Positions 21,042 through 58,204 of a DNA stretch of 64,000 nucleotides are shown here, in pieces; the stretch's first letter is position 1, and the number at the start of each line of letters is the position of its first letter. The translations under genes and the position numbers were made by a program. The DNA is from Candidatus Bathyarchaeota archaeon (GTDB lineage Archaea; Thermoproteota; Bathyarchaeia; Bathyarchaeales; Bathycorpusculaceae). A model generated the notes under the pieces. It made no database searches, was not told the origin of the DNA, and saw only the letters and a list, made by a program, of their open reading frames with translations. The stretch spans positions 928,001 to 992,000 of the forward strand of contig OY970340.1 of the NCBI GenBank assembly GCA_963717465.1, read 5' to 3'.

Positions 21042-22717
21042 ATGTCCATCTTGGAAACTAAAGATCTTGTCTATACGTATCCTGGTGGTCAAAAGCCATC
21101 AATCGACGGAGTCTCCATAAAAGTGAAGAAAGGAGAATTCGTTTTGATTACTGGTCCAAGTGGCTGCGGGAAAACGACTTTGTGCCGATGTTTTAACGGT
21201 TTAATTCCTCATTTTTACCAAGGCGAATTACACGGCGAAATCCAAGTAACAGGATTAAACATTACTGAACACCCTACTCAAGAATTAGCACGGCATGTTG
21301 GCTTGGTTTTTCAAAATCCAGAAAATCAACTATTCGCTTTATCCGTCGAAAAAGACGTCGCGTTTGGCATGGAAAATCTCGGCGTACCCCGAAACGAAAT
21401 GCGCGAAAGAGTTGATTGGGCATTAAACATGACTGGAATCGCTAATTTACGCGAAAGATCGCCGCATGAGGTTTCTGGGGGTCAACAGCAACGTGTTGCA
21501 ATAGCATCGGTTCTTGCCATGAAACCGGAAATAATCGTTTTAGATGAACCCACATCTTTTCTTGACCCATTAAGCGCTGAAAAAATCTTTGAAGTTATCG
21601 CTGAACTTAACAAAAAGCAAGGCATAACAGTCATTCTAGTTGAGCATAGACTAGATTTAACGGCAAAGTACACTGACCATCTGATAGTGATGAATGAGGG
21701 AAAGGTTTGCTCTAGATGGAAATCCCCGAGAAATCCTTAATTCAGAGGAAACACGCCTAATCGGCGTCGGAATACCTAAAGCAACTCTCCTCTATCAAAT
21801 GCTAAAGAAAGACGGGTTAGAACTAGGAAAAACAATCCCGTTATCTTCTGAAGAATTGGCCGACCAACTGAGGGAGGCTTTGAGAGCATTGATTGAGGTT
21901 GAAGACATCCATTTTTCTTACCCTAGTCAAGTCGAGGCGCTAAAAGGCGTTTCATTGACTATAAATGATGGTGAATTTGTTGCCATCATGGGACAAAACG
22001 GTGCTGGAAAAACAACACTCGTTAAACACTTTAATGGTTTACTCAAGCCTTCACAAGGAAGCATCCGCGTTGACGGCGTTGAAACAAAAAAATCAAGCTG
22101 TTGCAGCGTTGTCTAGAAATATCGGTTTTGTTTTTCAGAATCCAGATCATCAGTTGTTCAGCGAAACCGTCGAAGAAGAAATAGGGTTCGCACTCAAGAA
22201 TTTTGGTTTTGAGCCAGAAACCATTGAAAAACAGATAACTTGGGCTCTAAACCTATTATCGTTAACGCAGTACAGGAAGACTTCACCGTTTATGCTCAGC
22301 GGGGGCGAACGCAAACGCGTTGCACTAGCCTCAGTGTTAGCTTGGGATCCTAAAACGTTGATTTTGGATGAGCCAACCATAGGCCAGGATCATGAACAAA
22401 AAGAAAAATTAAGGCAATTTATCATTCAAATGCAAACTCAGAAAAAAACAGTTGTTATAGTTACTCATGATGTGGAATTTGTTGCCGAATGCAACCCCCG
22501 TGTAATTTTCATGAAAGAAGGAAAAATCATCGGAGACGGCATTGGAAAAGAAATGCTTACAAATCAAGAACTACTTTCGCAATCATACATTGTTTTACCG
22601 CAAATAGCCCAAGTATTCAAAGATTTATCATCTTTAGGACTTCCAAGTGATATTATCGATATTTACGAAGCCAAAGATGTAATTTTGAAGGCTCAGGAGA
22701 GAAGAAGACAAAAATGA
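21042..22717 (+). CDS. ecfA: ECF transporter ATPases (two ABC domains; two genes or one fusion, obscured by frameshifts)
   Basis: GPSGCGKTT / GQNGAGKTT Walker A, FQNP, SGGQ/SGGE, LDEPT twice. Confidence 0.85.
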
Positions 22718-23662: not shown

Positions 23663-24682
23663 ATGAACTATAGACTTACAAAAGCTGTACCGGTACATGG
23701 ATGAAGCTGCAAGCTCCCACAGTACCAGCTGGATAAACTTCTCGTCAAAGCCGGCGTGTCAATAAAACTTGGCGGCGAGTTGTTAGCTGGACCTTGGGAG
23801 AACTCAAGCGTCATGAAAATTGCAGAAGACCTTGCTTTACTGAACACTCTGGATTTTTTCACTCCGATAGTCGACGAACCCGAGGTACAGGGCAGAATCG
23901 CAGCAAACAATGTTACCAGCGACATTTACGCGATGGGCGTATCGAAAATAGTAAACGTTTTGTCAATTATGGGCTTTCCAGAGGAAATGCCAAACAAGTT
24001 AGCTGTAGGAATGCTGAAAGGATTCGCCGATTTTTGCCGAGAAATTGGTGCGCCTCTTGTTGGTGGGCACACAATTCGAAATCCATGGCCTATTTTGGGC
24101 GGTGCGGCGACCGGTGTTGCCAGCCCAAATAAAATTGTTTATACACGAGGTGCAAAACCTGACGATTTGTTGGTTTTAACTAAACCTTTGGGAATTCAGC
24201 CTGCTATGGCGGCTTATCGAATGTGGAAAGAGAAAACAGGCAGGGAATTGCTAAGTGATATCCCGAAAAAAGTGGTTAAAGATGCAATCTCTGGGGCGAT
24301 TGAAGTAATGACATCTTCGAATAAACCTGTAGCGGAGGCAATGCAGCAGGTTCCAGTCCATGCTGCTACTGACATTACGGGTTTTGGTTTGAAGGGTCAC
24401 GCTGAAAACATGGCAAAACTTGGTCAAGTAAATATTGTATTCGATGAATTAGCAGTTATCCGTGGTACGCCTGCTTTGGCTGAGGTGCAGGGTTATCCTT
24501 TGCTTAAGGGTGATGCAAGCGAGACTGCAGGAGGCATGCTTATAGCTGTAGGCAAAGGGGATTTAGATGATTTGCTTAAAGAGTTAGAAAAACGTAAGGT
24601 TAGACACTTTGAAGTTGGCCGTGTAATGAAGGGTCAAGGTACAGTGAAAATAGGTAAGCAAGTGAAAATTTTAGAAGTTTAA
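23663..24682 (+). CDS. selD: Selenophosphate synthetase (selenide, water dikinase), a selenoprotein with UGA=Sec at codon 14 (23702-23704); 339 aa
   Basis: ATG 23663 is in frame with ORF 23756..24682 and reads MNYRLTKAVPVHG(TGA)SCKLP; also DFFTPIVDEP..QGRIAANN.TSDIYAMG, GGHT, LTKPLG, TDITGFGL.GH, ETAGGML. Confidence 0.95.
23714..23800 (+). promoter_or_regulatory. Candidate Sec-recoding stem-loop immediately downstream of the selD UGA
   Basis: Hand-folded nested pairs CUCCCA/UGGGAG, CCAGCU/AGCUGG, CUCGUC/GGCGAG, GCC/GGC; not computed. Confidence 0.4.
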
Positions 24683-24741: not shown

Positions 24742-26940
24742 GTGCCAGTTTCTCGCTGCCCATATCTACTTATAATGTGCGGGTTGCCTGCTTCAGGCAA
24801 AACAACCATATGCAGAAAGGTGGCTGCGATTCTCGAGGACAAACATGGCTTACCAACTATGATAATCAGCTCTGACGATTTCAGGCGTATGGTTACGTAT
24901 TCTAGTTCGGGATTTCAGCCTGAAAAAGAGGCGGCTATTAAGCTTCTTTTTGAAAGAGCAATAAGTACTGCCTTGGAAAATTCTTTTTTAGTAATTTGCG
25001 ATGACATGAACTATTATAAGTCGATGAGGGCAGACTTAGGCAAAATCGCTAAAAACTCAAATTCAGATTACGACATTGTCTTTGTCAATACTCCTGTTGA
25101 CTTAGCGTTAAAATGGAATCAGGAGCGGGGCTTTACAGTCCCTAATTCGCTTATTGAGGAAATTAACCAAAAACTAGACGCGCCCAAAGGCGATTATAAA
25201 TGGGATACTGCAATGGCCACCGTTGATCCGAGCAAACAGAGTTTAGATGAAATGGCAAACGTAATCGTCGGCGGCATTATTAAAAGATTGGAGAATCCAG
25301 TCAGAAGTAAACCCAAAAAGATTGTCGAGGACGAAAAATCATTAAGAGCACGGGGTATCGAGAGAGAAACTCGGAAATCAATGATGGAAGTTATGACGCG
25401 GTTCAAAAATCCAGATTTGGCTATTTCCCTCTCAAAGATCCGCAAGGAAGTAGTTAAGAAAGCCTTGCTGGAAGGGGTTCAACCCACAGTTGCTGTGGAA
25501 ATGTTCCTAAGAGGTGCTGATGAAGTCACCAAAGGTTTCGCCATGCCCGAGACGAAAGGGTTGATTTCAGTCCATGTAGGCTTATTTGGTCACGTGGATC
25601 ACGGCAAAACCATGCTTGCTAGACGATTAACAGAGAAGCCTTCAACTGCAGCGTTGGATAAAGCTCCTGATTCAGCGCGGCGTGGTATGACCTTGGATAT
25701 GGGTTTCTCAGCTTTCTGGCTTGACAATTACATGGTGACACTTGTTGACCTGCCGGGGCATTTTAGCTTAATTAGGCATGCAGCTGCGGGAGCCAACATT
25801 ATCGATTCTGCAATACTTGTTGTCGCGGCGGATCTTGGCTTGCAGATTCAAAGTGTCGAGCATTTTTCAATAATTAAAAACTTGGGCATAAAGGATCTTG
25901 TCGTGGCTTTAAACAAGATTGATGCGGCTTCTCCTGACAGAATCGAGGAAGTAAAAAAGAAAATCGCGCTTATGCTGAAAGGAACACGATACGAGAACGC
26001 CAAGATAGTTGGAGTTTCAGGCTTAACAGGCGCTGGCATGGAGGAATTAAAGAATGAAATCAAGATGTCACTTAAGCCTCCCGTTAGGCAATGGGTTGGG
26101 CCTTTTAAGATGCCCATTGATCACGCATTCATAATCGCTGGAGTCGGCACCGTTTTAACTGGAACAATTCATCGTGGAAAAGTAAAACTGAAGGATACTG
26201 TTGAGATCAAGCCGATCGATAAGACTGGGCAAGTCAGGTCTTTGAGGTCTTTTGGTGAAGAAAAGGAAGAAGCAATCGCTGGTGACCGCGTTGGAATGGC
26301 TGTTAAGGATATTAAACCTGATGATGCTCACAGAGGTTTCATCGCTTGCACCCCAGGGTCAATTAAGTCTACCCAGCGTATGCTTGTAGAATTTGAAATG
26401 GACAAGTATTACAAGCGTTCGATGGAGCCCAAAAGTGGAGTAACAGCATTCGTTGGGTCCTATGAAGTGTTAGCAACTGCTACACCTGGAACACTTGAAA
26501 ACTCAAAATTCGTTGTTAAACCTTCAATCAGAGACGGAGAAAAATGCACAATTTATCTGGAACTTAAGGAGCCAGTGGTAGCGGAAAGCGGTGACCGTGT
26601 TCTACTGTTAAATACCGGGCTTCAAGCACGTGAATTCCGAATAATCGGCGGAGGAAGAATCATCGAAACAGAGAAAATACCTGAATTCTTCTCAAGAAAA
26701 GTCAAATCAGGAACCGTGAAGGAAAAGCAAACAGACAACAACTACATCATAAGCGGTTTAGCCAATGCTGAAGGCGCAGCTGTAAAGTATACGAAGAAGC
26801 AGATCACGACTGCAGCTGGCGTAAAAGGGGAAATTATCTCTCCTTCAAAATCAAGTGGAGATGTCGTTGCCACGTTTATCCAGCCGGTTCAGGTAGGCGA
26901 AAAAGTGTTTCTCGTTAAATATAAGAAACTGCAGGTTTGA
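24742..26940 (+). CDS. pstK-selB: Fusion of O-phosphoseryl-tRNA(Sec) kinase (aa ~1-265) and selenocysteine-specific elongation factor SelB (aa ~268-732)
   Basis: PSTK: CGLPASGKTT, SDDFR, ICDDMNYYKSMR.DL, YKWD, IERETRK. SelB: GLFGHVDHGKT, STAALDK.P.S.RRGMTLDMGFSAF, LVDLPGH, NKID, PIDHAF..AGVGTVLTGT, AGDRVG. Confidence 0.92.
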   Translation: MPVSRCPYLLIMCGLPASGKTTICRKVAAILEDKHGLPTMIISSDDFRRMVTYSSSGFQPEKEAAIKLLFERAISTALENSFLVICDDMNYYKSMRADLGKIAKNSNSDYDIVFVNTPVDLALKWNQERGFTVPNSLIEEINQKLDAPKGDYKWDTAMATVDPSKQSLDEMANVIVGGIIKRLENPVRSKPKKIVEDEKSLRARGIERETRKSMMEVMTRFKNPDLAISLSKIRKEVVKKALLEGVQPTVAVEMFLRGADEVTKGFAMPETKGLISVHVGLFGHVDHGKTMLARRLTEKPSTAALDKAPDSARRGMTLDMGFSAFWLDNYMVTLVDLPGHFSLIRHAAAGANIIDSAILVVAADLGLQIQSVEHFSIIKNLGIKDLVVALNKIDAASPDRIEEVKKKIALMLKGTRYENAKIVGVSGLTGAGMEELKNEIKMSLKPPVRQWVGPFKMPIDHAFIIAGVGTVLTGTIHRGKVKLKDTVEIKPIDKTGQVRSLRSFGEEKEEAIAGDRVGMAVKDIKPDDAHRGFIACTPGSIKSTQRMLVEFEMDKYYKRSMEPKSGVTAFVGSYEVLATATPGTLENSKFVVKPSIRDGEKCTIYLELKEPVVAESGDRVLLLNTGLQAREFRIIGGGRIIETEKIPEFFSRKVKSGTVKEKQTDNNYIISGLANAEGAAVKYTKKQITTAAGVKGEIISPSKSSGDVVATFIQPVQVGEKVFLVKYKKLQV

Positions 26941-27818
26941 GCGTTAAAGACTTGACTGAACGTACACGTTTTGGTCCAGCCGGTGTTCCTCCACCTTTTC
27001 GGATTCTTAGAGCCAAGTTATCGGATGTTCCTGGGCTTCTGCGGGAAGAGGGTCTTGATGCGTTTGAGTATCAAGCTTCACGTTGGGGTGCGACACCGCA
27101 AATCAAACAAGAGGATGCTGAGAAATTGGGCCTTGAAGCAAAGAAAAACGATGTCAAGCTCAGCGTTCATGGGTCCTACTTCATTAACCTATCTGGAAAA
27201 GATGATATCGTTGAAGCAAGCAAGCAACGTTTGATTGCTGGTGCAACCGCGGCGCAGTGGATGGGAGCATACGTCGTTGTTTTTCACTTGGGTTTTTATG
27301 GCCGATTTGAAAAGAGTTTTGCCTTCAAAAACTGCGTAACCGCTTTGAAAGACGTAAGTCAAACCTTAAAGAGTCTAGGAATCAAGGTGAAGCTCGGTCC
27401 AGAGACGATGGGCAGAAAATTTCAAGTCGGATCACTTGACGAAATATTAACGATTTGCCAAGAAGTTGAAGGCACACAGTTGGTTATTGATTGGGGCCAT
27501 CTCCATGCGAGAAATCAGGGCGCATTCAAAAAAATTGAGGATTTCCGATCAGCCGTTGAAAAAGTTGAGTACCAACTCGGAACAGAAGCGATAAAGAATA
27601 TGCACTGTCACTTCTCTAAAATCGAGTTCTCCAGCCAAGGAGAAAAGAGGCATCGAACATTGGAGGAAAAAAGGTATGGCCCAGACTTTGCGTTGCTTGC
27701 TCAAGTGATTGCGGATTTTAATTTGTATCCGACTTTGATTTGTGAAACGCCTCTTTTGGATATTGACGCAGTTAAAATGCGAGAAATTTATGATGGCGTA
27801 CTGAAAGGAAAAATGTAA
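26937..27818 (+). CDS. Endonuclease IV-like TIM-barrel protein
   Basis: RFGPAGVP, SVHGSYFINL, VFHLG, PETMG, IDWGHLHAR, HCHFSKIE, ICETP; 4-nt overlap with selB stop. Confidence 0.85.
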   Translation: MSVKDLTERTRFGPAGVPPPFRILRAKLSDVPGLLREEGLDAFEYQASRWGATPQIKQEDAEKLGLEAKKNDVKLSVHGSYFINLSGKDDIVEASKQRLIAGATAAQWMGAYVVVFHLGFYGRFEKSFAFKNCVTALKDVSQTLKSLGIKVKLGPETMGRKFQVGSLDEILTICQEVEGTQLVIDWGHLHARNQGAFKKIEDFRSAVEKVEYQLGTEAIKNMHCHFSKIEFSSQGEKRHRTLEEKRYGPDFALLAQVIADFNLYPTLICETPLLDIDAVKMREIYDGVLKGKM

Positions 27819-29249: not shown

Positions 29250-31157
29250 TCATTTTCCGATTGTTGGTTTGCCTATCGCAGTTACAATAATTTCGGTTCC
29301 TTCTCCCATGGTTTTCACCTGCGTTTTTATTTGCGGGTCCTGTATTCCAGCTATTACTGTCCTCTCCCTCAATAGTCTAGTCGCCTCTGTTAAGGCATAA
29401 TTTCTTGCTGTGTCAGCAACTGTATAGACAGGTTTTTCGAGACCAAATATGCGTACTTGGTCTTCTACTGCAGGGTTAGGTATTATTTGCACTGTTACTG
29501 TTTCCACGACAACGCCGCTGATAGCTCCCACGGCGTTTCCGACTGCGTAATACGGTGGTAGGACAAGTTTGGTGTTGAGTCGTTCGCAAACTGGGGGCAT
29601 CATTAATCCAACTGGACCTCCAATAGCCACTATAGGCAAATTCGCCGTTATTTTTATTCCACAACGAGTTCCTTCACCTGATGAAGCTTTGTCTAATATA
29701 TATTCGCAAGTGTCACACACAGATTTTTCTCCAATTTCATCGAACAATAATTTTTTGGTGACCTCTTTGCATAATCTGTTATAAATAAGGTTCAGAGCTC
29801 CAATGACTAGTTCGCTTGGGCTTGCTCCCAAGTTTGATGCAAAGACACTAACTCCCTTCTTAGAAATCTCAACATCCCATTCTGTATAGGTGCCTTGGAA
29901 ATGAAATAGATCAGTAGGTGTTAAGCCAACTCCCTCAATTATGTACTGCGCTTTAAGGTCTTTAATAATCGTTTGTATGAGTGCTGCAGGCTTAGCTATT
30001 TCTTGAAGCAACTCGTTAAGTGTGACTGGCTGCAATCTTTCGATGGCACTAAAAACTTGTTGTTCAATCTTTTCAAGATTGGCATTTCTTGCACTATGCG
30101 CTATCAAGAAGTCAGTGCGCTTACTGGATTCAATTTTTTCTCGCAATTTTGGATATTTCTTAGCAGCAAGGCACAATGGGATTACCCTTTCAGGGCCAGC
30201 CCGCACGTAACCGTTGTTTATCCAGATTCGGCTGTCCCCTGCTAATCCAACAGTTCTCATGGATAAAGCTCTCACTCGAGTCCTCCAATCGCCTACGGAG
30301 GCTCCTTCAGAGTCAATTTGGCAGTTACCATCAATAACTATGCCTATGTCAGTGGATGTTCCTCCAATGTCAACAACTATAAAATCCTTAAGTTTAGATA
30401 GAACCACCGCCCCGACAGCGCTTGCAGCTGTTCCGGATAACATTGTTTCTACTGGTCTTTCGCGTGCAACTGCTTCGCTTGTTAGTGAACCGTCGCTTTT
30501 AACAACCATGAGAGGCGCATTGATACTTCTTTCAACAAGGCTCATCTTTATTTTGTCTAAAAATTCTTTGATTATGGGGAGCAATCGTGCATTAAGGTAT
30601 GCCGTAGTGGTTCTTGCATCCATGCCCAGTCTAGGCGACATCTCATGACCACAGATGACGGGTAAACCTGTTAATTCTTTAATTATTTCTCTTGTCCTTA
30701 TTTCATGCTCTGGGTTTCTGCAGCCGAAATAGGCTGAAACTGCAAATGCCTTAACTTTATTTGCCATAGATTCTACGGCTGATCTGACCGCCAATTCGTC
30801 TAAGGGCTCTATTTCCTCACCCATAAGGTCATGACCGCCCTTAACAAAAGCTTGATTGTTTCTTAGTTCTTTTATGTCGCCTGGCTGAATTAGTAGTGTT
30901 CCTACATTCCAGCCTTTGTTTTGAAGTATGGAGTTTGTGGCAAGTGTTGTGGAGACTGAAACAAGCTTAATCTCCTCGCCTTTGACGCGTCCTTGCCCGA
31001 ACGCATTATTGATAGAATTGATTATGCCAACAGAAAAATCGTAGGGAGTTGTTTTAGCTATGCCTATTTCAATAATTTCTCTTTTTTCAAGGTCAATGAT
31101 TACGCTTTGAGTGTTTGAACCTCCAGTGTCTGTGCCCATTCCTAAAACTTGTGGCAT
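29250..31157 (-). CDS. Hydantoinase A/oxoprolinase-family protein, paralogue 1
   Basis: G.DTGGSNT, STTLATN, RTTTAYLNARL.P, ET.LSG.AAS, VDIGGTSTDI, VGNAVGA. Confidence 0.85.
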   Translation of the reverse strand: MPQVLGMGTDTGGSNTQSVIIDLEKREIIEIGIAKTTPYDFSVGIINSINNAFGQGRVKGEEIKLVSVSTTLATNSILQNKGWNVGTLLIQPGDIKELRNNQAFVKGGHDLMGEEIEPLDELAVRSAVESMANKVKAFAVSAYFGCRNPEHEIRTREIIKELTGLPVICGHEMSPRLGMDARTTTAYLNARLLPIIKEFLDKIKMSLVERSINAPLMVVKSDGSLTSEAVARERPVETMLSGTAASAVGAVVLSKLKDFIVVDIGGTSTDIGIVIDGNCQIDSEGASVGDWRTRVRALSMRTVGLAGDSRIWINNGYVRAGPERVIPLCLAAKKYPKLREKIESSKRTDFLIAHSARNANLEKIEQQVFSAIERLQPVTLNELLQEIAKPAALIQTIIKDLKAQYIIEGVGLTPTDLFHFQGTYTEWDVEISKKGVSVFASNLGASPSELVIGALNLIYNRLCKEVTKKLLFDEIGEKSVCDTCEYILDKASSGEGTRCGIKITANLPIVAIGGPVGLMMPPVCERLNTKLVLPPYYAVGNAVGAISGVVVETVTVQIIPNPAVEDQVRIFGLEKPVYTVADTARNYALTEATRLLRERTVIAGIQDPQIKTQVKTMGEGTEIIVTAIGKPTIGK

Positions 31158-31197
31158 TTCGGAATCCTCATTTTTAAGCCTTCAACTGGACGAGCGA

Positions 31198-33198
31198 CTA
31201 TTTTCGCAGGGTTGGTTTGCCAATAGCAGTCACGATAATTTCAGTTCCACATGAAATCGTAGTTTGTTTGGCATTTGCGATGTCTTCTTGGGAAATATGT
31301 TGCCCTAATTCGAAATACAGCATCGCCGCTTTCTCCCCTGTGGGTCTCACGGTCGTCTTTATACGCGGGTCCTCTATTCCAACCCTTAGAGCTCTCTCTC
31401 TTGCTAATCTGATTGCTTCTTCTAGTGCATAATTTCCTGCTCTGTCAGCAGGCATGTAAATTGGCTCTTCTAAACCAAATATGGCAGCTTCGCCTTCAAC
31501 TGAAGGATTGGGCATTATTTGTAATATTACTGTTTCCACGACGACGCCGCTGATGGCTCCCACGGCGTTTCCGACAGGGTAATATGACGGTAGAACAAGT
31601 TTAGTATTTAATCGTTCGCAAACTGGGGGCATGAGTAATCCAACAGGGCCTCCGATTGCCACAATAGGATAGTTCGCTGTCACTTTTATTCCGAAACGAC
31701 CTTGCCTGCCTGTTGCAGCTTTGTCTAATAGGTATTGGCAAGTGTCGCATGTGGATTCCTCTTCCATTTCATCAAACAATAATTTTTTGGCAATTTCTTT
31801 GTACACATTGTTATAAACAAAGTTTAAGGCTGCAGTTACTAGTTCTTCTGGGGTTATTTTCAAATTTTGGGCAAAGACGATAACTCCTTTTTTGGAAGTT
31901 TCAGCATCCCATTCCAAGAAAGTACCTTGATAATGAAACAGGTCTGTAGGTGTTAAGCCAACCCCTTCAATTATGTACTGCGCTTTAAAGGTTTTAATGG
32001 CATTCTGAATTAGTGGCGCAGGTTTATTGAGATCCTGAACTAATTCGTAAAAAGTGGCCGGTTGTAATTTTTCTATTACCTCAAAGATTTCCCTTTCGTA
32101 TTTTTCAAGTTTGGCATTTTTTGCACTGTGGGCTATTAAGAAATCAGTGCATTTACTTGACCCTATTTTTTCAGCTAATTTCGGATACTTTTTAGCGGCA
32201 AGGCACAGCGGGATTACCCTTTCGGGACCAGCCCATACGTAACCGTTGTTTATCCAGATTCGGCTGTCCCCTGCTAAACCAATAGTTCTCATGGATAAGG
32301 CTTTCACGCGTGTTTTCCAGCCTCCTACCGAGGCTCCTTCAGGGTCTATTTGGCAGTTACCATCCATAACCATTCCAATGTCAGTGGATGTACCTCCGAT
32401 ATCAACAACAATGTAATCTTTAAGTTTTGATAAAACTCCTGCTCCCACGGCGCTTGCAGCTGGTCCCGAGAGCAATGTTTCTACTGGTCTTTCGCGTGCA
32501 ACTGCTTCGCTTGTTAGTGAACCGTCGCTTCTTACAACCATGAGGGGTGCATTGATGTCTCTTTCAATGAGGCTCATTTTCATTTTATCTATGAATTCTT
32601 TAATTATTGGAAGTAATCTAGCGTTAAGGTATGCTGTTGTAGTCCTTTCGTGCATACCGAGTTGAGGCGACATTTCGTGACCACAGACAACGGGCAGTCC
32701 TGTCATTTCTTTAATTATTTTTCTAGTCCTTATTTCGTGCTCTGGGTTTCTGCAGCCGAAGTAGGCTGAAACTGCAAATGCTTTAACTTTGCTTGCCATA
32801 GCTTCTACGGCTGATCTGACCGCTTGTTCATCTAAGGGCTCTAATGCCTCACCCATGAGGTCATGACCGCCACCCTTCACGAAAGCTTTCTCGATTTGCA
32901 ACTCTTTTGTGGCTTCTGGTTGATAGCCGATTAGTATTGTGCCTACATTCCAGCCTTTGTTTTGGAGTATGGAGTTTGTGGCAAGTGTTGTGGAGACTGA
33001 AACAAGCTTAATCTCCTCGCCTTTAACGTGGCCTTGCCCGAACGCGTTATTGATAGAATTGATTATGCCTATTGAAAGGTCGTATGGAGTTGTGCTGGCT
33101 ATTCCTGTTTCAATAATTTCGCCTGTTTCAATATCTAAAATTACGGTTTGAGTGTTTGAACCGCCAGTATCTATCCCCATTCCAAAGTTTTTCGGCAT
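31198..33198 (-). CDS. Hydantoinase A/oxoprolinase-family protein, paralogue 2
   Basis: Same motifs (GIDTGGSNT, SGPAAS, DIGGTSTDIG); highly similar to paralogue 1. Confidence 0.85.
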   Translation of the reverse strand: MPKNFGMGIDTGGSNTQTVILDIETGEIIETGIASTTPYDLSIGIINSINNAFGQGHVKGEEIKLVSVSTTLATNSILQNKGWNVGTILIGYQPEATKELQIEKAFVKGGGHDLMGEALEPLDEQAVRSAVEAMASKVKAFAVSAYFGCRNPEHEIRTRKIIKEMTGLPVVCGHEMSPQLGMHERTTTAYLNARLLPIIKEFIDKMKMSLIERDINAPLMVVRSDGSLTSEAVARERPVETLLSGPAASAVGAGVLSKLKDYIVVDIGGTSTDIGMVMDGNCQIDPEGASVGGWKTRVKALSMRTIGLAGDSRIWINNGYVWAGPERVIPLCLAAKKYPKLAEKIGSSKCTDFLIAHSAKNAKLEKYEREIFEVIEKLQPATFYELVQDLNKPAPLIQNAIKTFKAQYIIEGVGLTPTDLFHYQGTFLEWDAETSKKGVIVFAQNLKITPEELVTAALNFVYNNVYKEIAKKLLFDEMEEESTCDTCQYLLDKAATGRQGRFGIKVTANYPIVAIGGPVGLLMPPVCERLNTKLVLPSYYPVGNAVGAISGVVVETVILQIMPNPSVEGEAAIFGLEEPIYMPADRAGNYALEEAIRLARERALRVGIEDPRIKTTVRPTGEKAAMLYFELGQHISQEDIANAKQTTISCGTEIIVTAIGKPTLRK

Positions 33199-33232
33199 CT
33201 TCAAACCCACTTTACATTGAGCTAAGATGTTG

Positions 33233-33874
33233 TTAAGCCTTTGTTAGCCTAACACCCATATCAAATGCTTTCTTGCAGTCTAATGGAAAGACTTCTCTGC
33301 GTGTTTTTGTTTTATCCTCCACATCGAAATCATGGACATATTTTGAGTAATCGTTAAATTGGTAAGTGTTCACGACCACGAGCGATTCAGAAGCTCCACC
33401 AAATTGTCTGCTAAGCATCGCTTCATTAATCATTATTTGTTTGTCAAGTCCGAATAATTCTATCCTCTCTTCCGTACTGCCCATAGTGTAAATAAAGCCG
33501 CAATTTAATTTTTTAGGAGCAAGCGACTGATCCGACCCGTAAACCAAGTATGGGAACAATAATCGCTCAATAAAAGACCTCATCTCGCCAGACACTACTC
33601 CAATGTACACGGGGGAACCTAAAATCAATGCGTCTGCTTGTGCAACTTTTTCCAAAACCGGCGTCAAATCATCTTTATAAGCGCAACGCCCATAACTTTT
33701 TCCACCTTTGAGTTTGCAGGCAAAACAACTTGTGCAACCTTTAAAGTTCAAGTCGTAAAGGTGAATCAGCTCGGTTTGTGCTCCCGTCGAAGCGGCGCCC
33801 TCAAGAGCCTTGTTCAGCAAAGTCGCAGTATTCCAGGTTTTCCTTGGACTGCCATTAATGGCTATTACTTTCAT
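33233..33874 (-). CDS. Flavodoxin-like iron-sulfur flavoprotein (NADPH-dependent FMN reductase family)
   Basis: INGSPRK.WNT, GCTSCFAC...GRC..KDD, LGSPVY. Confidence 0.85.
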   Translation of the reverse strand: MKVIAINGSPRKTWNTATLLNKALEGAASTGAQTELIHLYDLNFKGCTSCFACKLKGGKSYGRCAYKDDLTPVLEKVAQADALILGSPVYIGVVSGEMRSFIERLLFPYLVYGSDQSLAPKKLNCGFIYTMGSTEERIELFGLDKQIMINEAMLSRQFGGASESLVVVNTYQFNDYSKYVHDFDVEDKTKTRREVFPLDCKKAFDMGVRLTKA

Positions 33875-33964
33875 TTTTATCACTTTACTTTGCTAGCGCT
33901 AAAAACATTATTTAAACCTATGTTAGATAACGTTTTTAACAATAGACATTTATGCTCTACAGGG

Positions 33965-35226
33965 ATGCATAGATTGGTTAAGCTAAAAGGATTCCAGAAA
34001 CTAACTTCTGTTGACGAAGCATTAAGCGTTTGGCTCGGTAAGCTTCAGGTGGAAAAACCTGTTGCGATTACGGTTCCGCTGAAAGAAGCTTTAGGTGGAG
34101 TTTTAGCTAAGGATTTAATTGCGGAAGATAATTTGCCGCGTTTTGATAGGTCCGCTATGGATGGTTATGCTGTTAAGTCTGAATACGCAGTTGGTGCATC
34201 ACAGTTTAAACCTGCAATTTTTAAAATTACTGAAGCGCAAGAGGTTAAAGTAAAAGAGGCCAAGCAAGTTTGGACGGGTAATCCGATACCGAAAGGTGCT
34301 GATGCAGTTGTTATGGTTGAGAACACTCGTAAGCGTGATGGGGAATTGGAAGTTTGGACGCCGCTTGCAGTAGATGAGAACGTATCAAGAAAAGGAGAAG
34401 ATGTCAAAAAAGGCGAAGTTATTGCAAAGGCTGGAACCCGTTTGAATCCATACCATATTGGTTTGGCTGCTGCACTTGGTGACAGTCAAGTTAGTGTTGC
34501 AAAAAAACCCATAATCAGCCATTGTTGCAACTGGAAACGAACTTGCAGAAGTAGGCTCTGAACCGTTGGCTGGTCAAATTTATGATTCAAATAAAGTCAT
34601 GCTTTCCGCTATGTGCTTAGGAATTAGGTGCTGAACCGCTTGATTTAGGCATAGTAAAAGATGATTTGGAAGAAATTATATCGAAAATCAAGGAAGCCTT
34701 GAAGGTTTCTGATGCGGTCATTACCACAGGTGGAACCAGTGTTGGAGGTTTAGATTTAGTGCCTGATGCTGTAAACAAGATTGGTAAACCTGGTGTTGTT
34801 GCTCACGGGTTAGCCTTAAAACCTGCAATGCCCACAGGAGTCGGCATATTAGATGATAAACCAATCATGATTCTGTCAGGTAACCCAGTGGCATCAATTA
34901 TCGGTTTTGAAGTATTTGGCAGACCATTAATCTCCAGAATGCTGGGAATGGAAAAAGAAGAACCAAGACCAGTTCTAAAAGCCGTCATGACAAGAAAAAT
35001 AGCCACTACCTTGGGCAGAAAAACCTTTGTTCGCGTTAACGTGTCTGAGAAAAACGGTGAATTAGTCGCAGAACCTGTCAGTGCAAAGGGTTCAGGCGCC
35101 ATATCCACCATGACAAGGGGTAACGGGTTTATTATAGTTCCAGAAAGCAGGGAAGGCGTAGGAGAAGGCGAAACAGTAACCGTTCACATGTATGGTCTGG
35201 TGGAGGCTACAAAACAGAATGTTTAG
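33965..35226 (+). CDS. moeA: Molybdopterin molybdotransferase MoeA, copy 1, frameshifted
   Basis: LPRFDRSAMDGYAV, TGNPIPKGADAVVMVE, TTGGTSVG, SGNP. Confidence 0.9.
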
Positions 35227-36464
35227 GAAGCTAATGACGGTTGATGAAGCAAAAAAAACTATTGACAGTTATTTTAAACCCACAATTTTAGGCGATGAAT
35301 ATGCCCCTTTAATAGAGGCTTACAATCGAGTTTTAAACGAAGATGTAACTTCTTCTCTTGATATTCCCCCGTTTAACCGTTCAACCGTTGACGGTTACGC
35401 AGTTAAGGCTGAGGATACTTTTGGAGCAGAAGAAAATAAACCTGCAAAATTAAAGATTGTTGGTTCCGTGGTTATCGGAGAAACTCCAAAAGTAGTTGTA
35501 AAAAAAGGTGAAACTGCGGAAATCGTAACTGGCGCACCCATTCCTGAAGGCGCAGATGCAGTTGTTATGGTAGAGGACACAGAGAGAAAAGATGATTACC
35601 TGCAAGTTTTTTCCTCAGTAACCAAGAATGCGAACATCCAAAAGAAAGGCTCAGACATCAAGAATGGAGAAAAAGTGCTTAAGATCAGGGCAGGTTTTAG
35701 GGACATCAGAAATCGGAGTTATAGCTGCTTTAGGTCTAACTAAAGTTAAGGTTCTTAAAGCTCCAATAGTTGCAGTTATTTCAACTGGTGGAGAAGTAAC
35801 TGAACTTGGAAAAGAATTGCCTGCAGGAAAAATCTATGACATTAACGCCTACAGCGTAAGCGCTGCAGTAATTGAGAGTGGGGGAAAACCAGTTTATTTG
35901 GCGCAGTTCCATGATGATAAGGCTGCATTGACGAAGGCTTTGGAGTCTGCTTTGGCTTCCTGCTGATGTTGTAATTACTTCGGGCGGCGTTTCTGTTGGT
36001 CCCAAGGATTTTACTCCGCAAGTTTTAGATTCGCTTGGTAAACCTGGCGTTGTTGTTTGCGGTGTTGCTTTAAAGCCTGGGAAACCAACGACTGTTGCGT
36101 TTGTTAACGGTAAACCTGTTATTTCGTTGCCTGGTCACCCAACGTCTGCATTGCTTGTTTTCCATTTGTTCGCTAAACAAATTATTCAGCGGTTAGCAGG
36201 TAGATTTTCAGCGCAAGACAAGGTTGTGAAGGCAGTGGCTGGTTCAAGAATGTTTTCAGCCAAGGGTAGACGAACTTTTGTTATGGTAAAGTTAACTCGT
36301 GACAAGAACAATCGATTGGTAGCTGAACAAGTTGAATCGGGCCGTCAGGAGCTATAACGACACTTGCTAAAGCAGATGGATTTGTCGAGGTTGCAGAAAA
36401 CAACCAGTTTATCGACGCTGACGAAGAAGTTGATGTCGTATTGCTCAGAGATGTCCAGATTTAG
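35219..36464 (+). CDS. moeA: Molybdopterin molybdotransferase MoeA, copy 2, frameshifted
   Basis: PPFNRSTVDGYAV, TGAPIPEGADAVVMVE, ISTGGEV, IYDINAY, KPGKPT, LPGHPTSA. Confidence 0.9.
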
Positions 36465-39866: not shown

Positions 39867-41553
39867 TTAGTAGGGCATTCCACCCATTCCGCCGCCGGGC
39901 ATTCCAGGCATTCCTGGCGATATTCCTTGTGGCATGCCGCCTGGGGGTATCGGTGGCATTCTTCCGCCGCCTTTGACGCTGATTAGGTCGTCGATTTTCA
40001 GAATCATGTTTGTTGCTTCTACGGCTGATTTGATGACTTGTTGCTTAACGCGTAATGGTTCAAGAACTTTCATGTCAAACATGTTCTTGATTTTACCTGA
40101 TTCAACATCGATGCCGAAGTATTTGCTGTCTGCTTTCTCATGTTCTGCTCTTAATGCAACCATGATATCAATCGGGTCCAATCCAGCGTTTTCCGCCAAG
40201 GTCAAAGGAATTGATTCAACTGCTTCAGCAAAAGCTTCAACTGCTAATTGCTCTCGTCCACCAACTTTAACTGCGAAGCTTCGCAGGTTTTTGGCCAATT
40301 CTGCTTCTGGTGCACCACCGCCTGCAACTATCTTTCCGTCTTCTATTGCGTTTCTTACGACGCATAAGCCATCGTGTAGGGAGCGTTCTGCTTCGTCGAT
40401 TAAGTTGTTTGTTGCGCCTCTGATAACTATTGTTACTGCCTTTGGATTCTTGCAATCTCGTATGTAGACAAGTTTGTCGTCGCCGATTTTTACTTCTTCA
40501 ACTTTCTTTGCTTTTCCAAGCACATCAGGAGTTAAATCAGTTACTTGTGCAACTATTTTTCCGCCTGTTGCTCTGGCTAACTTTTCCATGTCTCCGCTGC
40601 TTATGGATTTAACTGCTAAAATACCTGCTTTGCCTAGAAAATGCTGTACCATGTCGTCAAGGCCTTTCTCGCAGAAAAGAACATTTGCACCTGACTTGAC
40701 AACTGACAGTCACCATGTCTTTGAGCATTCGCTCCTCTTCATCTAGGAACATTTTCATTTGCTCTGGGCTTTCGATGTTTATTTTTGCTTCAAACTCTGT
40801 TTTTTCAATCTCCATTTTGGCATTCAGCAAAGCGATTTTTGCGCCGTCAATGAATTTTGGCATTGTTGGAGCAGCAATTTCTTTGTCAAGCACCATGCCT
40901 TTAACAAGTTCCGTTTCATCCAAGCTTTGACCATGCTTCTTAACAACTTTTATCAAATCAATATCAGCAACATATCTGTCCTCAACTTTTTCCGAAACCT
41001 GTTTAACAGCGGTGACAATCATCTTGGCAAAATGATCTTGGGCAATGTTTATGCCCTTGCTCGATAAGGATGTAATTGCTACCGTACGCAAAGTTTCTTC
41101 GTCATCTATGTTTACTGGAATCGCTATTTTCAGTAGAATTTCTTGAGCTTTTTCACTCGCCTTTTTGTAGCCGTCTATAATGACTGTTGAATGTATATTC
41201 TTATCAAGTAAACCTTCAGCTTTTGCAAGCAGTTCTCCCGCTAAAACCACTGCTGTCGTTGTGCCGTCACCAACTTCATTGTCCTGTGCTTTTGCAACTT
41301 CAACCAGCATTTTTGCTGCCGGATGTTGAACATCCAGTTCCTTCATTATTGTTGCGCCGTCATTAGTTATTGCAACGTCGCCTGTGCTGCTGACTAACAT
41401 TTTGTCCATGCCGCATGGACCAAGTGTAGTCTTTACAGTTTCGGCAACTATTTTCGCTGCCATTATATTGTTCCTTTGGGCTTCGCGTCCTGTTGATCTG
41501 CCCGTACCTTCTTTTAAGACAAGAATTGGAACGGTTCCTCCACCTGTTGACAT
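39867..41553 (-). CDS. ths: Thermosome (group II chaperonin) subunit, frameshifted near 40660-40710
   Basis: TTLGP.GMDKML, TNDGATI, GDGTTT, AGGGAPE, GGM-rich tail. Confidence 0.95.
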
Positions 41554-41748
41554 ATTTATCACCAAATATTTTCCTTTACAAATTCCTGTATACTAATCGT
41601 AGGAACAATTAAACCTTGAAATATAAATTTTTCCCAACAGCAATGCTGTTAAGTAAGTTACATAGCATTTCTGGAGTTCATTAAGCTTTTTGAACAAACT
41701 TTTTTTAAACAACTTTTGAATTGATATAAATTCAAAGAGCAGTTAATT

Positions 41749-58134: not shown

Positions 58135-58160
58135 TTTTTTACCTCTCAGTTTATGCTTAC

Positions 58161-58204
58161 GGTTCAGCCTTTCGGCCACATCCCAGCGGACATGATTATC
58201 CGCC
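58161..58204 (-). promoter_or_regulatory. Candidate structured 5' leader of rpl15e
   Basis: mRNA strand GGCGGAUA-AUCA-UGUCCGCU then GG-GAUGU-GGCC-GAAA-GGCU-GAA-CC, about 25 nt before the start. Confidence 0.5.

Follow-up and report, generated by a model that had tools for sequence, protein, structure and literature searches.

A PSTK-SelB fusion protein in selenocysteine-using Bathyarchaeia

In the pathway of Sec-tRNA(Sec) synthesis, SerRS forms Ser-tRNA(Sec), which PSTK phosphorylates; SepSecS then uses selenophosphate to convert the product to Sec-tRNA(Sec), and aSelB-GTP delivers the latter. Because the kinase, SepSecS and SelB each work on the acceptor end of the tRNA, they must act one after another.

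PSTK and SelB are separate proteins in Methanococcales and Asgard archaea (PMC8762117), and PSTK-aSelB fusions have been described in Bathyarchaeota and in one Archaeoglobus species (Mukai et al. 2022, Front Genet; PMC8762117, abstract and section 3.4.1), a finding repeated in the review of Meng et al. 2022 (PMC9499178, available in part). The preliminary description of the DNA analyzed here knew of no described example; given that the architecture is already in print, the fusion as such is not new. The available parts of a 2024 Asgard survey (PMC11227280) and of a 2026 review (PMC13188914) do not mention Bathyarchaeia, and no experimental study of any fusion was found in the literature searched, which lies largely outside subscription journals.

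The window (the whole stretch of DNA that was analyzed, 64,000 nucleotides) contains the following features at and around the fusion gene:

23663 to 24682, + strand: selD, the selenophosphate synthetase gene and a selenoprotein gene in its own right, with an in-frame TGA at 23702-23704 in an H-G-U-S-C-K motif.
23705 to 23743, + strand: conserved stretch after the selD UGA, with synonymous-site conservation in Sec-type but not Cys-type selD, and a weak fold in this genome.
24742 to 26940, + strand: pstk-selB fusion gene for P0001, delineated by the ORF, Pfam and TIGR profiles and fused homologues; its TGA stop overlaps the nfo start.
24760 to 25296, + strand: PSTK kinase domain, approximately residues 7-185, with P-loop K20/T21, Walker B D45, R129 and W154-D155, from the alignment to M. 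jannaschii PSTK (PMC2275090, available in part).
25297 to 25332, + strand: flexible linker between the kinase domain and the C-terminal bundle, approximately residues 186-197; pLDDT below 50 at 190-195, and conserved positions 0/12 across both clades.
25333 to 25530, + strand: PSTK C-terminal three-helix bundle (residues 198-263), predicted to bind the tRNA(Sec) D-loop; helices 198-221, 224-244 and 248-263 in the AlphaFold model, role by analogy with M. jannaschii (PMC3035459, available in part).
25531 to 25563, + strand: fusion junction, approximately residues 264-274, with an in-frame ATG at 25543 (Met268); conserved positions 0/11.
25564 to 26076, + strand: SelB G domain, approximately residues 275-445, with intact G1, switch I Thr317, switch II D336-x-P-G-H340 and NKxD.
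26089 to 26361, + strand: SelB domain II, with the aminoacyl pocket D460/H461/R516, from the alignment to 4ac9 (PMC3037878, available in part).
26362 to 26676, + strand: SelB domain III, matched by PF21440 (aSelB_III) at 546-642, above the cut-off.
26677 to 26937, + strand: domain IV, a beta-barrel of the archaeal/eukaryotic type lacking the bacterial winged-helix extension; all-strand model, 4ac9 alignment to residue 727 and a weak RIBIOP_C match.
26937 to 27818, + strand: endonuclease IV-like gene (nfo), which overlaps the fusion stop; in the relatives examined, the fusion has no such neighbor.

The translation of 24742-26940(+) is a single stop-free ORF of 732 aa, with a GTG start and a TGA stop. 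Judging from its sequence, P0001 consists of a PSTK (residues 7-263), a joint of approximately 11 residues and a four-domain archaeal SelB. The uninterrupted PSTK-SelB ORF reported in the preliminary description was recovered with all the motifs named there, and both halves match profiles and structures. Conservation was assessed in an alignment of P0001 with 112 of the best 120 homologues, the 8 omitted ones being shorter or incomplete; P0001 deviates at only 2 of the 147 highly conserved positions of the family.

The N-terminal part is matched by Pfam KTI12 over residues 9-219 (E 1e-34) and by TIGR03574, the archaeal PSTK equivalog, over residues 9-241 at 148.2 bits, which does not reach the cut-off of 290.5; accordingly, this part is classed as a homologue with PSTK-like function that lies outside the equivalog. 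The best match among solved structures is M. jannaschii PSTK (3adb/3a4l; E 1e-27), and the residues that are essential in that enzyme (PMC2275090, available in part), namely the Lys and Ser/Thr of the P-loop, D41 and R120, are kept as K20, T21, D45 and R129; position 14 is Ala, within the G/A consensus. Substitutions are found at M. jannaschii R116, the equivalent of which is W125 (Trp in all 113 alignment rows), and in the acceptor-stem pair K142/Y143, which corresponds to D151/Y152; single changes at R116 or K142/Y143 had a mild effect in the M. jannaschii enzyme (PMC3035459 and PMC2275090, both available in part). The C-terminal domain of M. jannaschii PSTK is mobile, binds the D-loop and is the source of most of the affinity for tRNA (PMC3035459, available in part). 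In the corresponding bundle of the fusion, E207 and R211 are equivalent to D195 and R199, with R211 present in 113/113 rows, and seven basic positions are preserved in both clades of the family.

The C-terminal part scores 270.9 bits against TIGR00475 (selB; cut-off 242.25), the aSelB_III Pfam match is likewise above its cut-off, and M. maripaludis SelB (4ac9) aligns over residues 276-727 (E 2e-79) and is the top structural match of the P0001 model (Foldseek E 1e-46; identity 33-36%). The translational GTPase motifs are intact (G1, T317, D336-H340, N391-K392-D394). The pocket residues D460, H461 and R516 correspond to M. maripaludis D191, H192 and R247, with H461 and R516 present in 113/113 rows and D460 in 103/113; because Asp191, His192 and Arg247 are also present in SelB-like proteins (PMC3037878, available in part), the pocket alone is not decisive for aSelB identity. 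The absence of the bacterial winged-helix SECIS-binding extension, already noted from the letters, is borne out by the profiles, the 4ac9 alignment and the all-strand domain IV: no SelB-wing family is among the 15 Pfam matches of P0001, and a search of the genome for SelB-wing_2 and SelB-wing_3 found none. Within the fusion, conservation is lowest in domain IV (7 of 87 positions).

The AlphaFold model of P0001 (113-row alignment) has a mean pLDDT of 86 and a pTM of 0.66, with a low-confidence linker at 190-195; the modest pTM can be read as well-folded modules lacking a fixed mutual position of PSTK and SelB. Complex prediction for the two halves gave a median of 0.04, with disagreeing runs of 0.02, 0.48 and 0.04, and counts neither for nor against an interaction. 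P0001 is almost certainly a genuine bifunctional protein, and the reading that we favor is that it combines a working Sec-tRNA kinase and a Sec-specific elongation factor on one chain.

The fused gene is present in 12 of the 401 genomes of the class, the carriers belonging to 4 families, and in 4 of the 40 genomes of its own genus. The carriers are related and 84-98% complete; the genome studied here is a single 3.05-Mb contig rated 88%. When the PSTK part was used as the query, the strong matches in the 401 genomes were confined to the 12 carriers, with two additional partial matches at 36 bits, and 200 genomes sampled from the phylum yielded no additional carrier. Among the best 120 homologues, 116 cover at least 93% of P0001 (identity 40-90%), and in a quick version of the tree the fusion spans two deep clades at approximately 40% identity. 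The PSTK part occurs in shorter form in 9 matches, and the 7 inspected are contig-end pieces or frameshifted tails. In a locus search with the alignment, EF-Tu and bacterial SelB dominate the 80 loci listed per run, and one PSTK-part fragment appears.

These data bear on the possibility that two genes were merged in the assembly through the loss of a stop or through indels that compensate one another. The preliminary description had cautioned that the assembly is indel-rich, and it is indeed error-prone nearby, the genes for an ECF ATPase, a thermosome and MoeA being split by frameshifts. However, the same register of fusion is seen in 11 other genomes and in 116 of the best 120 homologues, and since independent assemblies carry it, an artifact is refuted, its residual probability being negligible. 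The junction itself (25450-25600) contains one homopolymer of 4 only, and both other frames are closed. In the 12 carriers, no stop is found at the junction, although one of them (G232) has a TAA further on, in SelB domain III; the two-domain architecture recurs in all 12, and the PSTK-part query found no stand-alone PSTK in the 401 genomes, so close relatives with two separate ORFs did not emerge.

The ATG at 25543 had been proposed as an independent start of SelB. The codon exists and is in frame; however, Met268 is conserved in only 30/113 rows (any junction Met in 53/113), which makes an obligatory second start unlikely, and we reject such a start as a family trait, if less firmly for this gene itself. 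In the family to which this genome belongs, ATG is present at or near this column in 6/8 genes and GTG in 1/8, so a relic of a SelB start may persist there.

Why the two proteins are joined is a separate question. We consider it an even call that both catalytic modules work, that the PSTK bundle anchors tRNA(Sec) for both of them and that SepSecS acts in trans. Under this scheme, the three-helix bundle, which is flanked by the kinase and SelB modules and tied to each by a short linker, would grip the D-loop/elbow of the tRNA, away from the acceptor end, which would thus be left to the kinase, SepSecS and SelB in turn. As a shared anchor, the bundle could hold the scarce tRNA(Sec) near the elongation factor, and a kinase placed beside that factor could phosphorylate Ser-tRNA(Sec) before it is delivered as serine; the eukaryotic EFSec, which is of the same four-domain type, has been reported to accept Ser-tRNA(Sec) (PMC11431864, available in part). 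Such an arrangement would amount to loose tethering combined with a fidelity gate rather than a sealed channel, and the bundle would probably release the tRNA on the ribosome. Because SepSecS is a separate protein that needs the acceptor end, a strict hand-over is impossible unless that end is released, so the channeling suggested in the preliminary description is plausible in loose form only.

Several observations count in favor of a shared anchor: the fusion and a full-length SepSecS (357-400 bits) occur in exactly the same 12 of the 401 genomes (two weaker SepSecS matches coincide with SepCysS genes), with no unfused PSTK there; the fusion spans two deep clades; the length of the junction is nearly fixed and its sequence is free; the catalytic residues, R211 and the seven basic positions of the bundle are kept; and the host genome holds tRNA(Sec), SepSecS, SelD and UGA-containing genes alongside the fusion. 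Counted against it are the pTM of 0.66, with a model that lends no support to a fixed PSTK-SelB arrangement, the sufficiency of separate proteins in Methanococcales and Asgard archaea (PMC8762117), the Asp and Trp in place of M. jannaschii K142 and R116, and the constant length of the linker, which may merely reflect a low number of indels.

The main rival explanation is that the stop between neighboring pstk and selB genes disappeared once, the halves remaining independent and the fusion being kept for 1:1 expression and a compact Sec cassette. This scenario, which we consider rather unlikely, fits the lack of sequence conservation at the junction, the patchy distribution (12/401 genomes, 4 families, 4/40 in the own genus), the possible survival of the old SelB start in the own family and the genomic neighborhoods: in relatives, the fusion gene adjoins SepSecS and, in several of them, also tRNA(Sec), selD or hdrA-mvhD. 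It is harder to reconcile with the fact that the junction has reverted in none of the 12 genomes, with the fragmentary nature of the 7 inspected shorter PSTK-part matches (of 9) and with the span of the junction (F255-H278), which stays at 22-25 residues in all 112 rows and equals 24 in 104 of them.

A further explanation, put forward by Mukai et al. 2022, is that joining the two proteins keeps Sep-tRNA(Sec) out of reach of SepCysS in organisms that lack the adapter SepCysE. It was proposed from the one Archaeoglobus species that has both systems (PMC8762117), and SepCysS is present in the class, in 43/401 genomes, so that an ancestor may have had both systems. However, SepCysS was found in 0/12 carriers, which is not a significant exclusion (approximately 1.3 expected; the carriers are kin and 84-98% complete), and SepRS scored above the cut-off in 0/12, with CysRS present in 12/12; the controls matched in M. 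jannaschii and M. acetivorans. The fusion is plainly kept where the SepCysS threat is lacking, which contradicts shielding as the present-day reason for its retention in these genomes, although the fusion could have originated in a SepCysS-bearing ancestor; overall, we rate shielding as very improbable. The only rationale in print does not stand up to direct testing in the lineage with the most frequent fusions, so that the purpose of the fusion needs to be reconsidered.

In the window, selD ends 59 bases upstream of the fusion gene and is probably in the same operon; a scan for promoters and terminators gave results at the chance level. In 11 relatives, 10 orthologues of selD were found, with TGA in 5 and Cys in 5. 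SepSecS (400 bits), a separate protein, and one tRNA(Sec) gene are located approximately 106 kb from the fusion gene. In this tRNA(Sec), one of two in the genome, the acceptor-T arrangement is 9/4, G73 is present, U6 and U67 form a mismatch, and the D-stem appears to be of 6 bp. The second tRNA(Sec) gene is adjoined by a second, full-length copy of the fusion (P0079; C1:2827363-2829555), which is 54% identical to P0001 and deviates at 26 of the 147 conserved positions, where the median is 1 and the next value 10. The deviations affect G1, switch I, the catalytic His and the kinase D45, among others. Given that the catalytic motifs of P0079 are degenerate, P0001 is the canonical copy. For P0079, dN is 0.35 against a near-saturated dS of approximately 3, which suggests continued selection, and no protein closer than 61% was found for its residues 200-460.

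The genome encodes several clients of this system. The hdrA-mvhD gene has two TGA codons at Cys positions, which relatives share; 10 of the 14 matches to the molybdopterin family contain one TGA each; and a methyltransferase-like gene contains two TGA codons aligned to Cys conserved in homologues. In a genome-wide UGA/Cys screen, antisense shadows made up most of the output; filtering left hdrA, mvhD and the methyltransferase. Since selD and the molybdopterin genes were missed, the screen is incomplete.

Hairpins that start approximately 7 nt after the UGA were evaluated by comparing the fold with those of synonymous recodings. The hairpin is significant at 8/8 Sec sites of hdrA vs 0/12 Cys paralogues and at 8/8 Sec sites of mvhD (excluding one spurious-motif TGA row, p 0.93) vs 1/13 Cys sequences; it is also significant at both UGA sites of the methyltransferase-like gene. 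In the molybdopterin genes, p<0.05 was obtained in 8/10 cases and 0.06 in two, against 0/40 control windows. For selD, the hairpin is significant at 3/6 Sec sites vs 0/5 Cys sites, with p 0.4 at the site in this genome. Synonymous conservation within the gene peaks in the windows that follow the two UGAs of hdrA-mvhD (8/11 and 11/13 codons vs 165/548), and in the post-UGA window of selD, 11/13 codons are invariant in three Sec-type genes vs 37/157 elsewhere, the Cys-type figures being 5/12 and 1/7. The orthologue sets consist of close kin, so that hdrA and mvhD represent approximately one event each and the independent hairpin events amount to approximately five gene families.

Archaeal SECIS elements have been placed in 3'-UTRs, and the archaeal SECIS-binding factor is not known (PMC8211752 and PMC13188914, both available in part). 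No SECIS was found by eye in the untranslated regions, there was no Rfam SECIS match in the 12 loci (E<=10), and no paper on a Bathyarchaeial SECIS was found. A conserved stretch behind hdrA-mvhD in relatives was considered as a SECIS and rejected, because it is a decayed mvhD copy.

The hairpins after UGA, together with the failure to find a bacterial SECIS-binding domain, make the fusion a candidate reader: the PSTK bundle, domain IV or, in a PSTK-mediated dimer, the partner subunit might bind the post-UGA hairpin, replacing the bacterial winged-helix domain. Such a role in reading the message, which appears improbable to us, is compatible with the hdrA, mvhD and molybdopterin hairpins at Sec sites as opposed to Cys paralogues or control windows, with the lack of Rfam SECIS matches and of SelB-wing_2/_3, and with the occurrence of the fusion and the hairpins in the same lineages. 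Conversely, aSelB failed to bind its SECIS in vitro (PMC8211752, available in part), conservation of the protein is lowest in domain IV, selD is equivocal, the hairpins may merely slow termination, and the kinship within the hdrA and mvhD sets reduces the number of events. It is likewise improbable that UGA decoding in the Bathyarchaeia that use Sec is a hybrid of archaeal enzymes and an in-gene hairpin signal, with PSTK-SelB as the reader; if true, this would be the first identified archaeal SECIS reader and would explain the presence of the fusion in every Sec-using genome sampled. One gene with a kinase and an elongation factor, and a client signal that seemingly adjoins the UGA, is a compact system in which to study the recruitment of SelB in archaea, and the fusion could possibly serve as a small module for selenoprotein engineering.

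Compared with the fusion of Mukai et al. 2022, the one described here is similarly a single ORF in a host with SepSecS, SelD and a tRNA(Sec) with the U6-U67 mismatch, and homologues 69-70% identical to P0001 are labeled Ca. Bathyarchaeota or Bathyarchaeia, names that point to a bathyarchaeial host. In contrast, the cluster is dispersed here, the SepRS-SepCysS system to guard against was not found, and the genome has the degenerate copy P0079 and its neighboring tRNA(Sec) in addition. With M. jannaschii PSTK (3adb, 3a4l, 3am1), P0001 shares the P-loop kinase domain, the mobile three-helix C-terminal bundle and the equivalents of K17, S18, D41, R120, Y143, W145, D195 (Glu here) and R199; unlike that stand-alone enzyme, it is fused and has Trp and Asp in place of R116 and K142, respectively. 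M. maripaludis aSelB (4ac9) and human eEFSec (5izk, 7zjw) have the same four-domain organization and aminoacyl pocket; P0001 differs by its N-terminal kinase, and its clients have hairpins in the coding sequence, with no 3'-UTR SECIS recognized. Finally, as in the bacterial model (PMC13188914, available in part), the hairpin lies just 3' of the UGA within the gene, whereas, unlike in bacteria with their SelB, neither P0001 nor the genome has a winged-helix SECIS-binding domain, and Sec is made by PSTK and SepSecS.

Apart from the canonical fusion gene, the source genome (contig C1) carries a second PSTK-SelB copy and two tRNA(Sec) genes:

C1:2827363-2829555 (locus L056:12364-14556), minus strand: second PSTK-SelB copy, full-length, outside the window
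C1:845695-845779: first tRNA(Sec) gene
C1:2829638-2829723: second tRNA(Sec) gene

The second PSTK-SelB copy, in which the GTPase and kinase motifs are degenerate, sits on a long branch in the tree and is apparently still under selection; the second tRNA(Sec) lies about 80 bases upstream of it. CCA is encoded in both tRNA(Sec) genes, each of which contains a U6-U67 mismatch; the acceptor-stem changes in the second are compensated. This second tRNA(Sec), like that of genome G371, has one extra D-stem base, which could be a long-read error.

Genes with in-frame TGA codons in the source genome include the following:

C1:1519923-1522484, minus strand: hdrA-mvhD with two Sec codons (orthologues at loci L245-L252)
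C1:1211394, 2054951 and 2377327, among ten loci: molybdopterin-family genes, each with one in-frame TGA and a downstream hairpin
C1:2822987-2824225 (L056:7988-9226), minus strand: methyltransferase-like gene in a corrinoid operon

A conserved hairpin starts 6 bases after each of the two hdrA-mvhD Sec codons, and the Cys paralogues lack such a hairpin; in the molybdopterin-family genes, GGA is frequent in the loops. The two in-frame TGA codons of the methyltransferase-like gene occupy positions where homologues conserve Cys. This gene has no Pfam match, no full-length homologues above 33% identity were found, and a term search of the 2026 selenoprotein catalogue did not find its family. The source genome also has a second CysRS-like gene, which is shorter (C1:3049309-3050547; 311 bits, below the cut-off); 4 of the 11 relatives have such a gene too.

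The fusion gene of genome G232 (locus L057, contig C14) contains an in-frame TAA within SelB domain III, and selD of this genome is frameshifted, whereas both TGA codons of its hdrA-mvhD are retained, a state that reflects either a Sec system in decay or errors in the assembly. At the edge of a contig of genome G383 (L055:3-482, contig C92) lies a C-terminal fragment from a second canonical-type fusion gene, with a SelB-like gene nearby; this fragment is possibly contamination.

The indel load of the source assembly is visible in split genes, probably frameshift errors, that lie in the window together with other features:

21042-22717, 33638-35966, 39867-41565: split genes (ECF ATPases, MoeA, thermosome)
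23663-24682: selD (also at loci L234-L243)
29250-33210, minus strand: two tandem hydantoinase/oxoprolinase A-like genes
58156-58203, minus strand: eL15-Euryarchaeota ribosomal protein leader (Rfam; 46 bits, above the gathering score)

Between close relatives, selD alternates between Sec (TGA) and Cys, with the Sec machinery kept by all of them.
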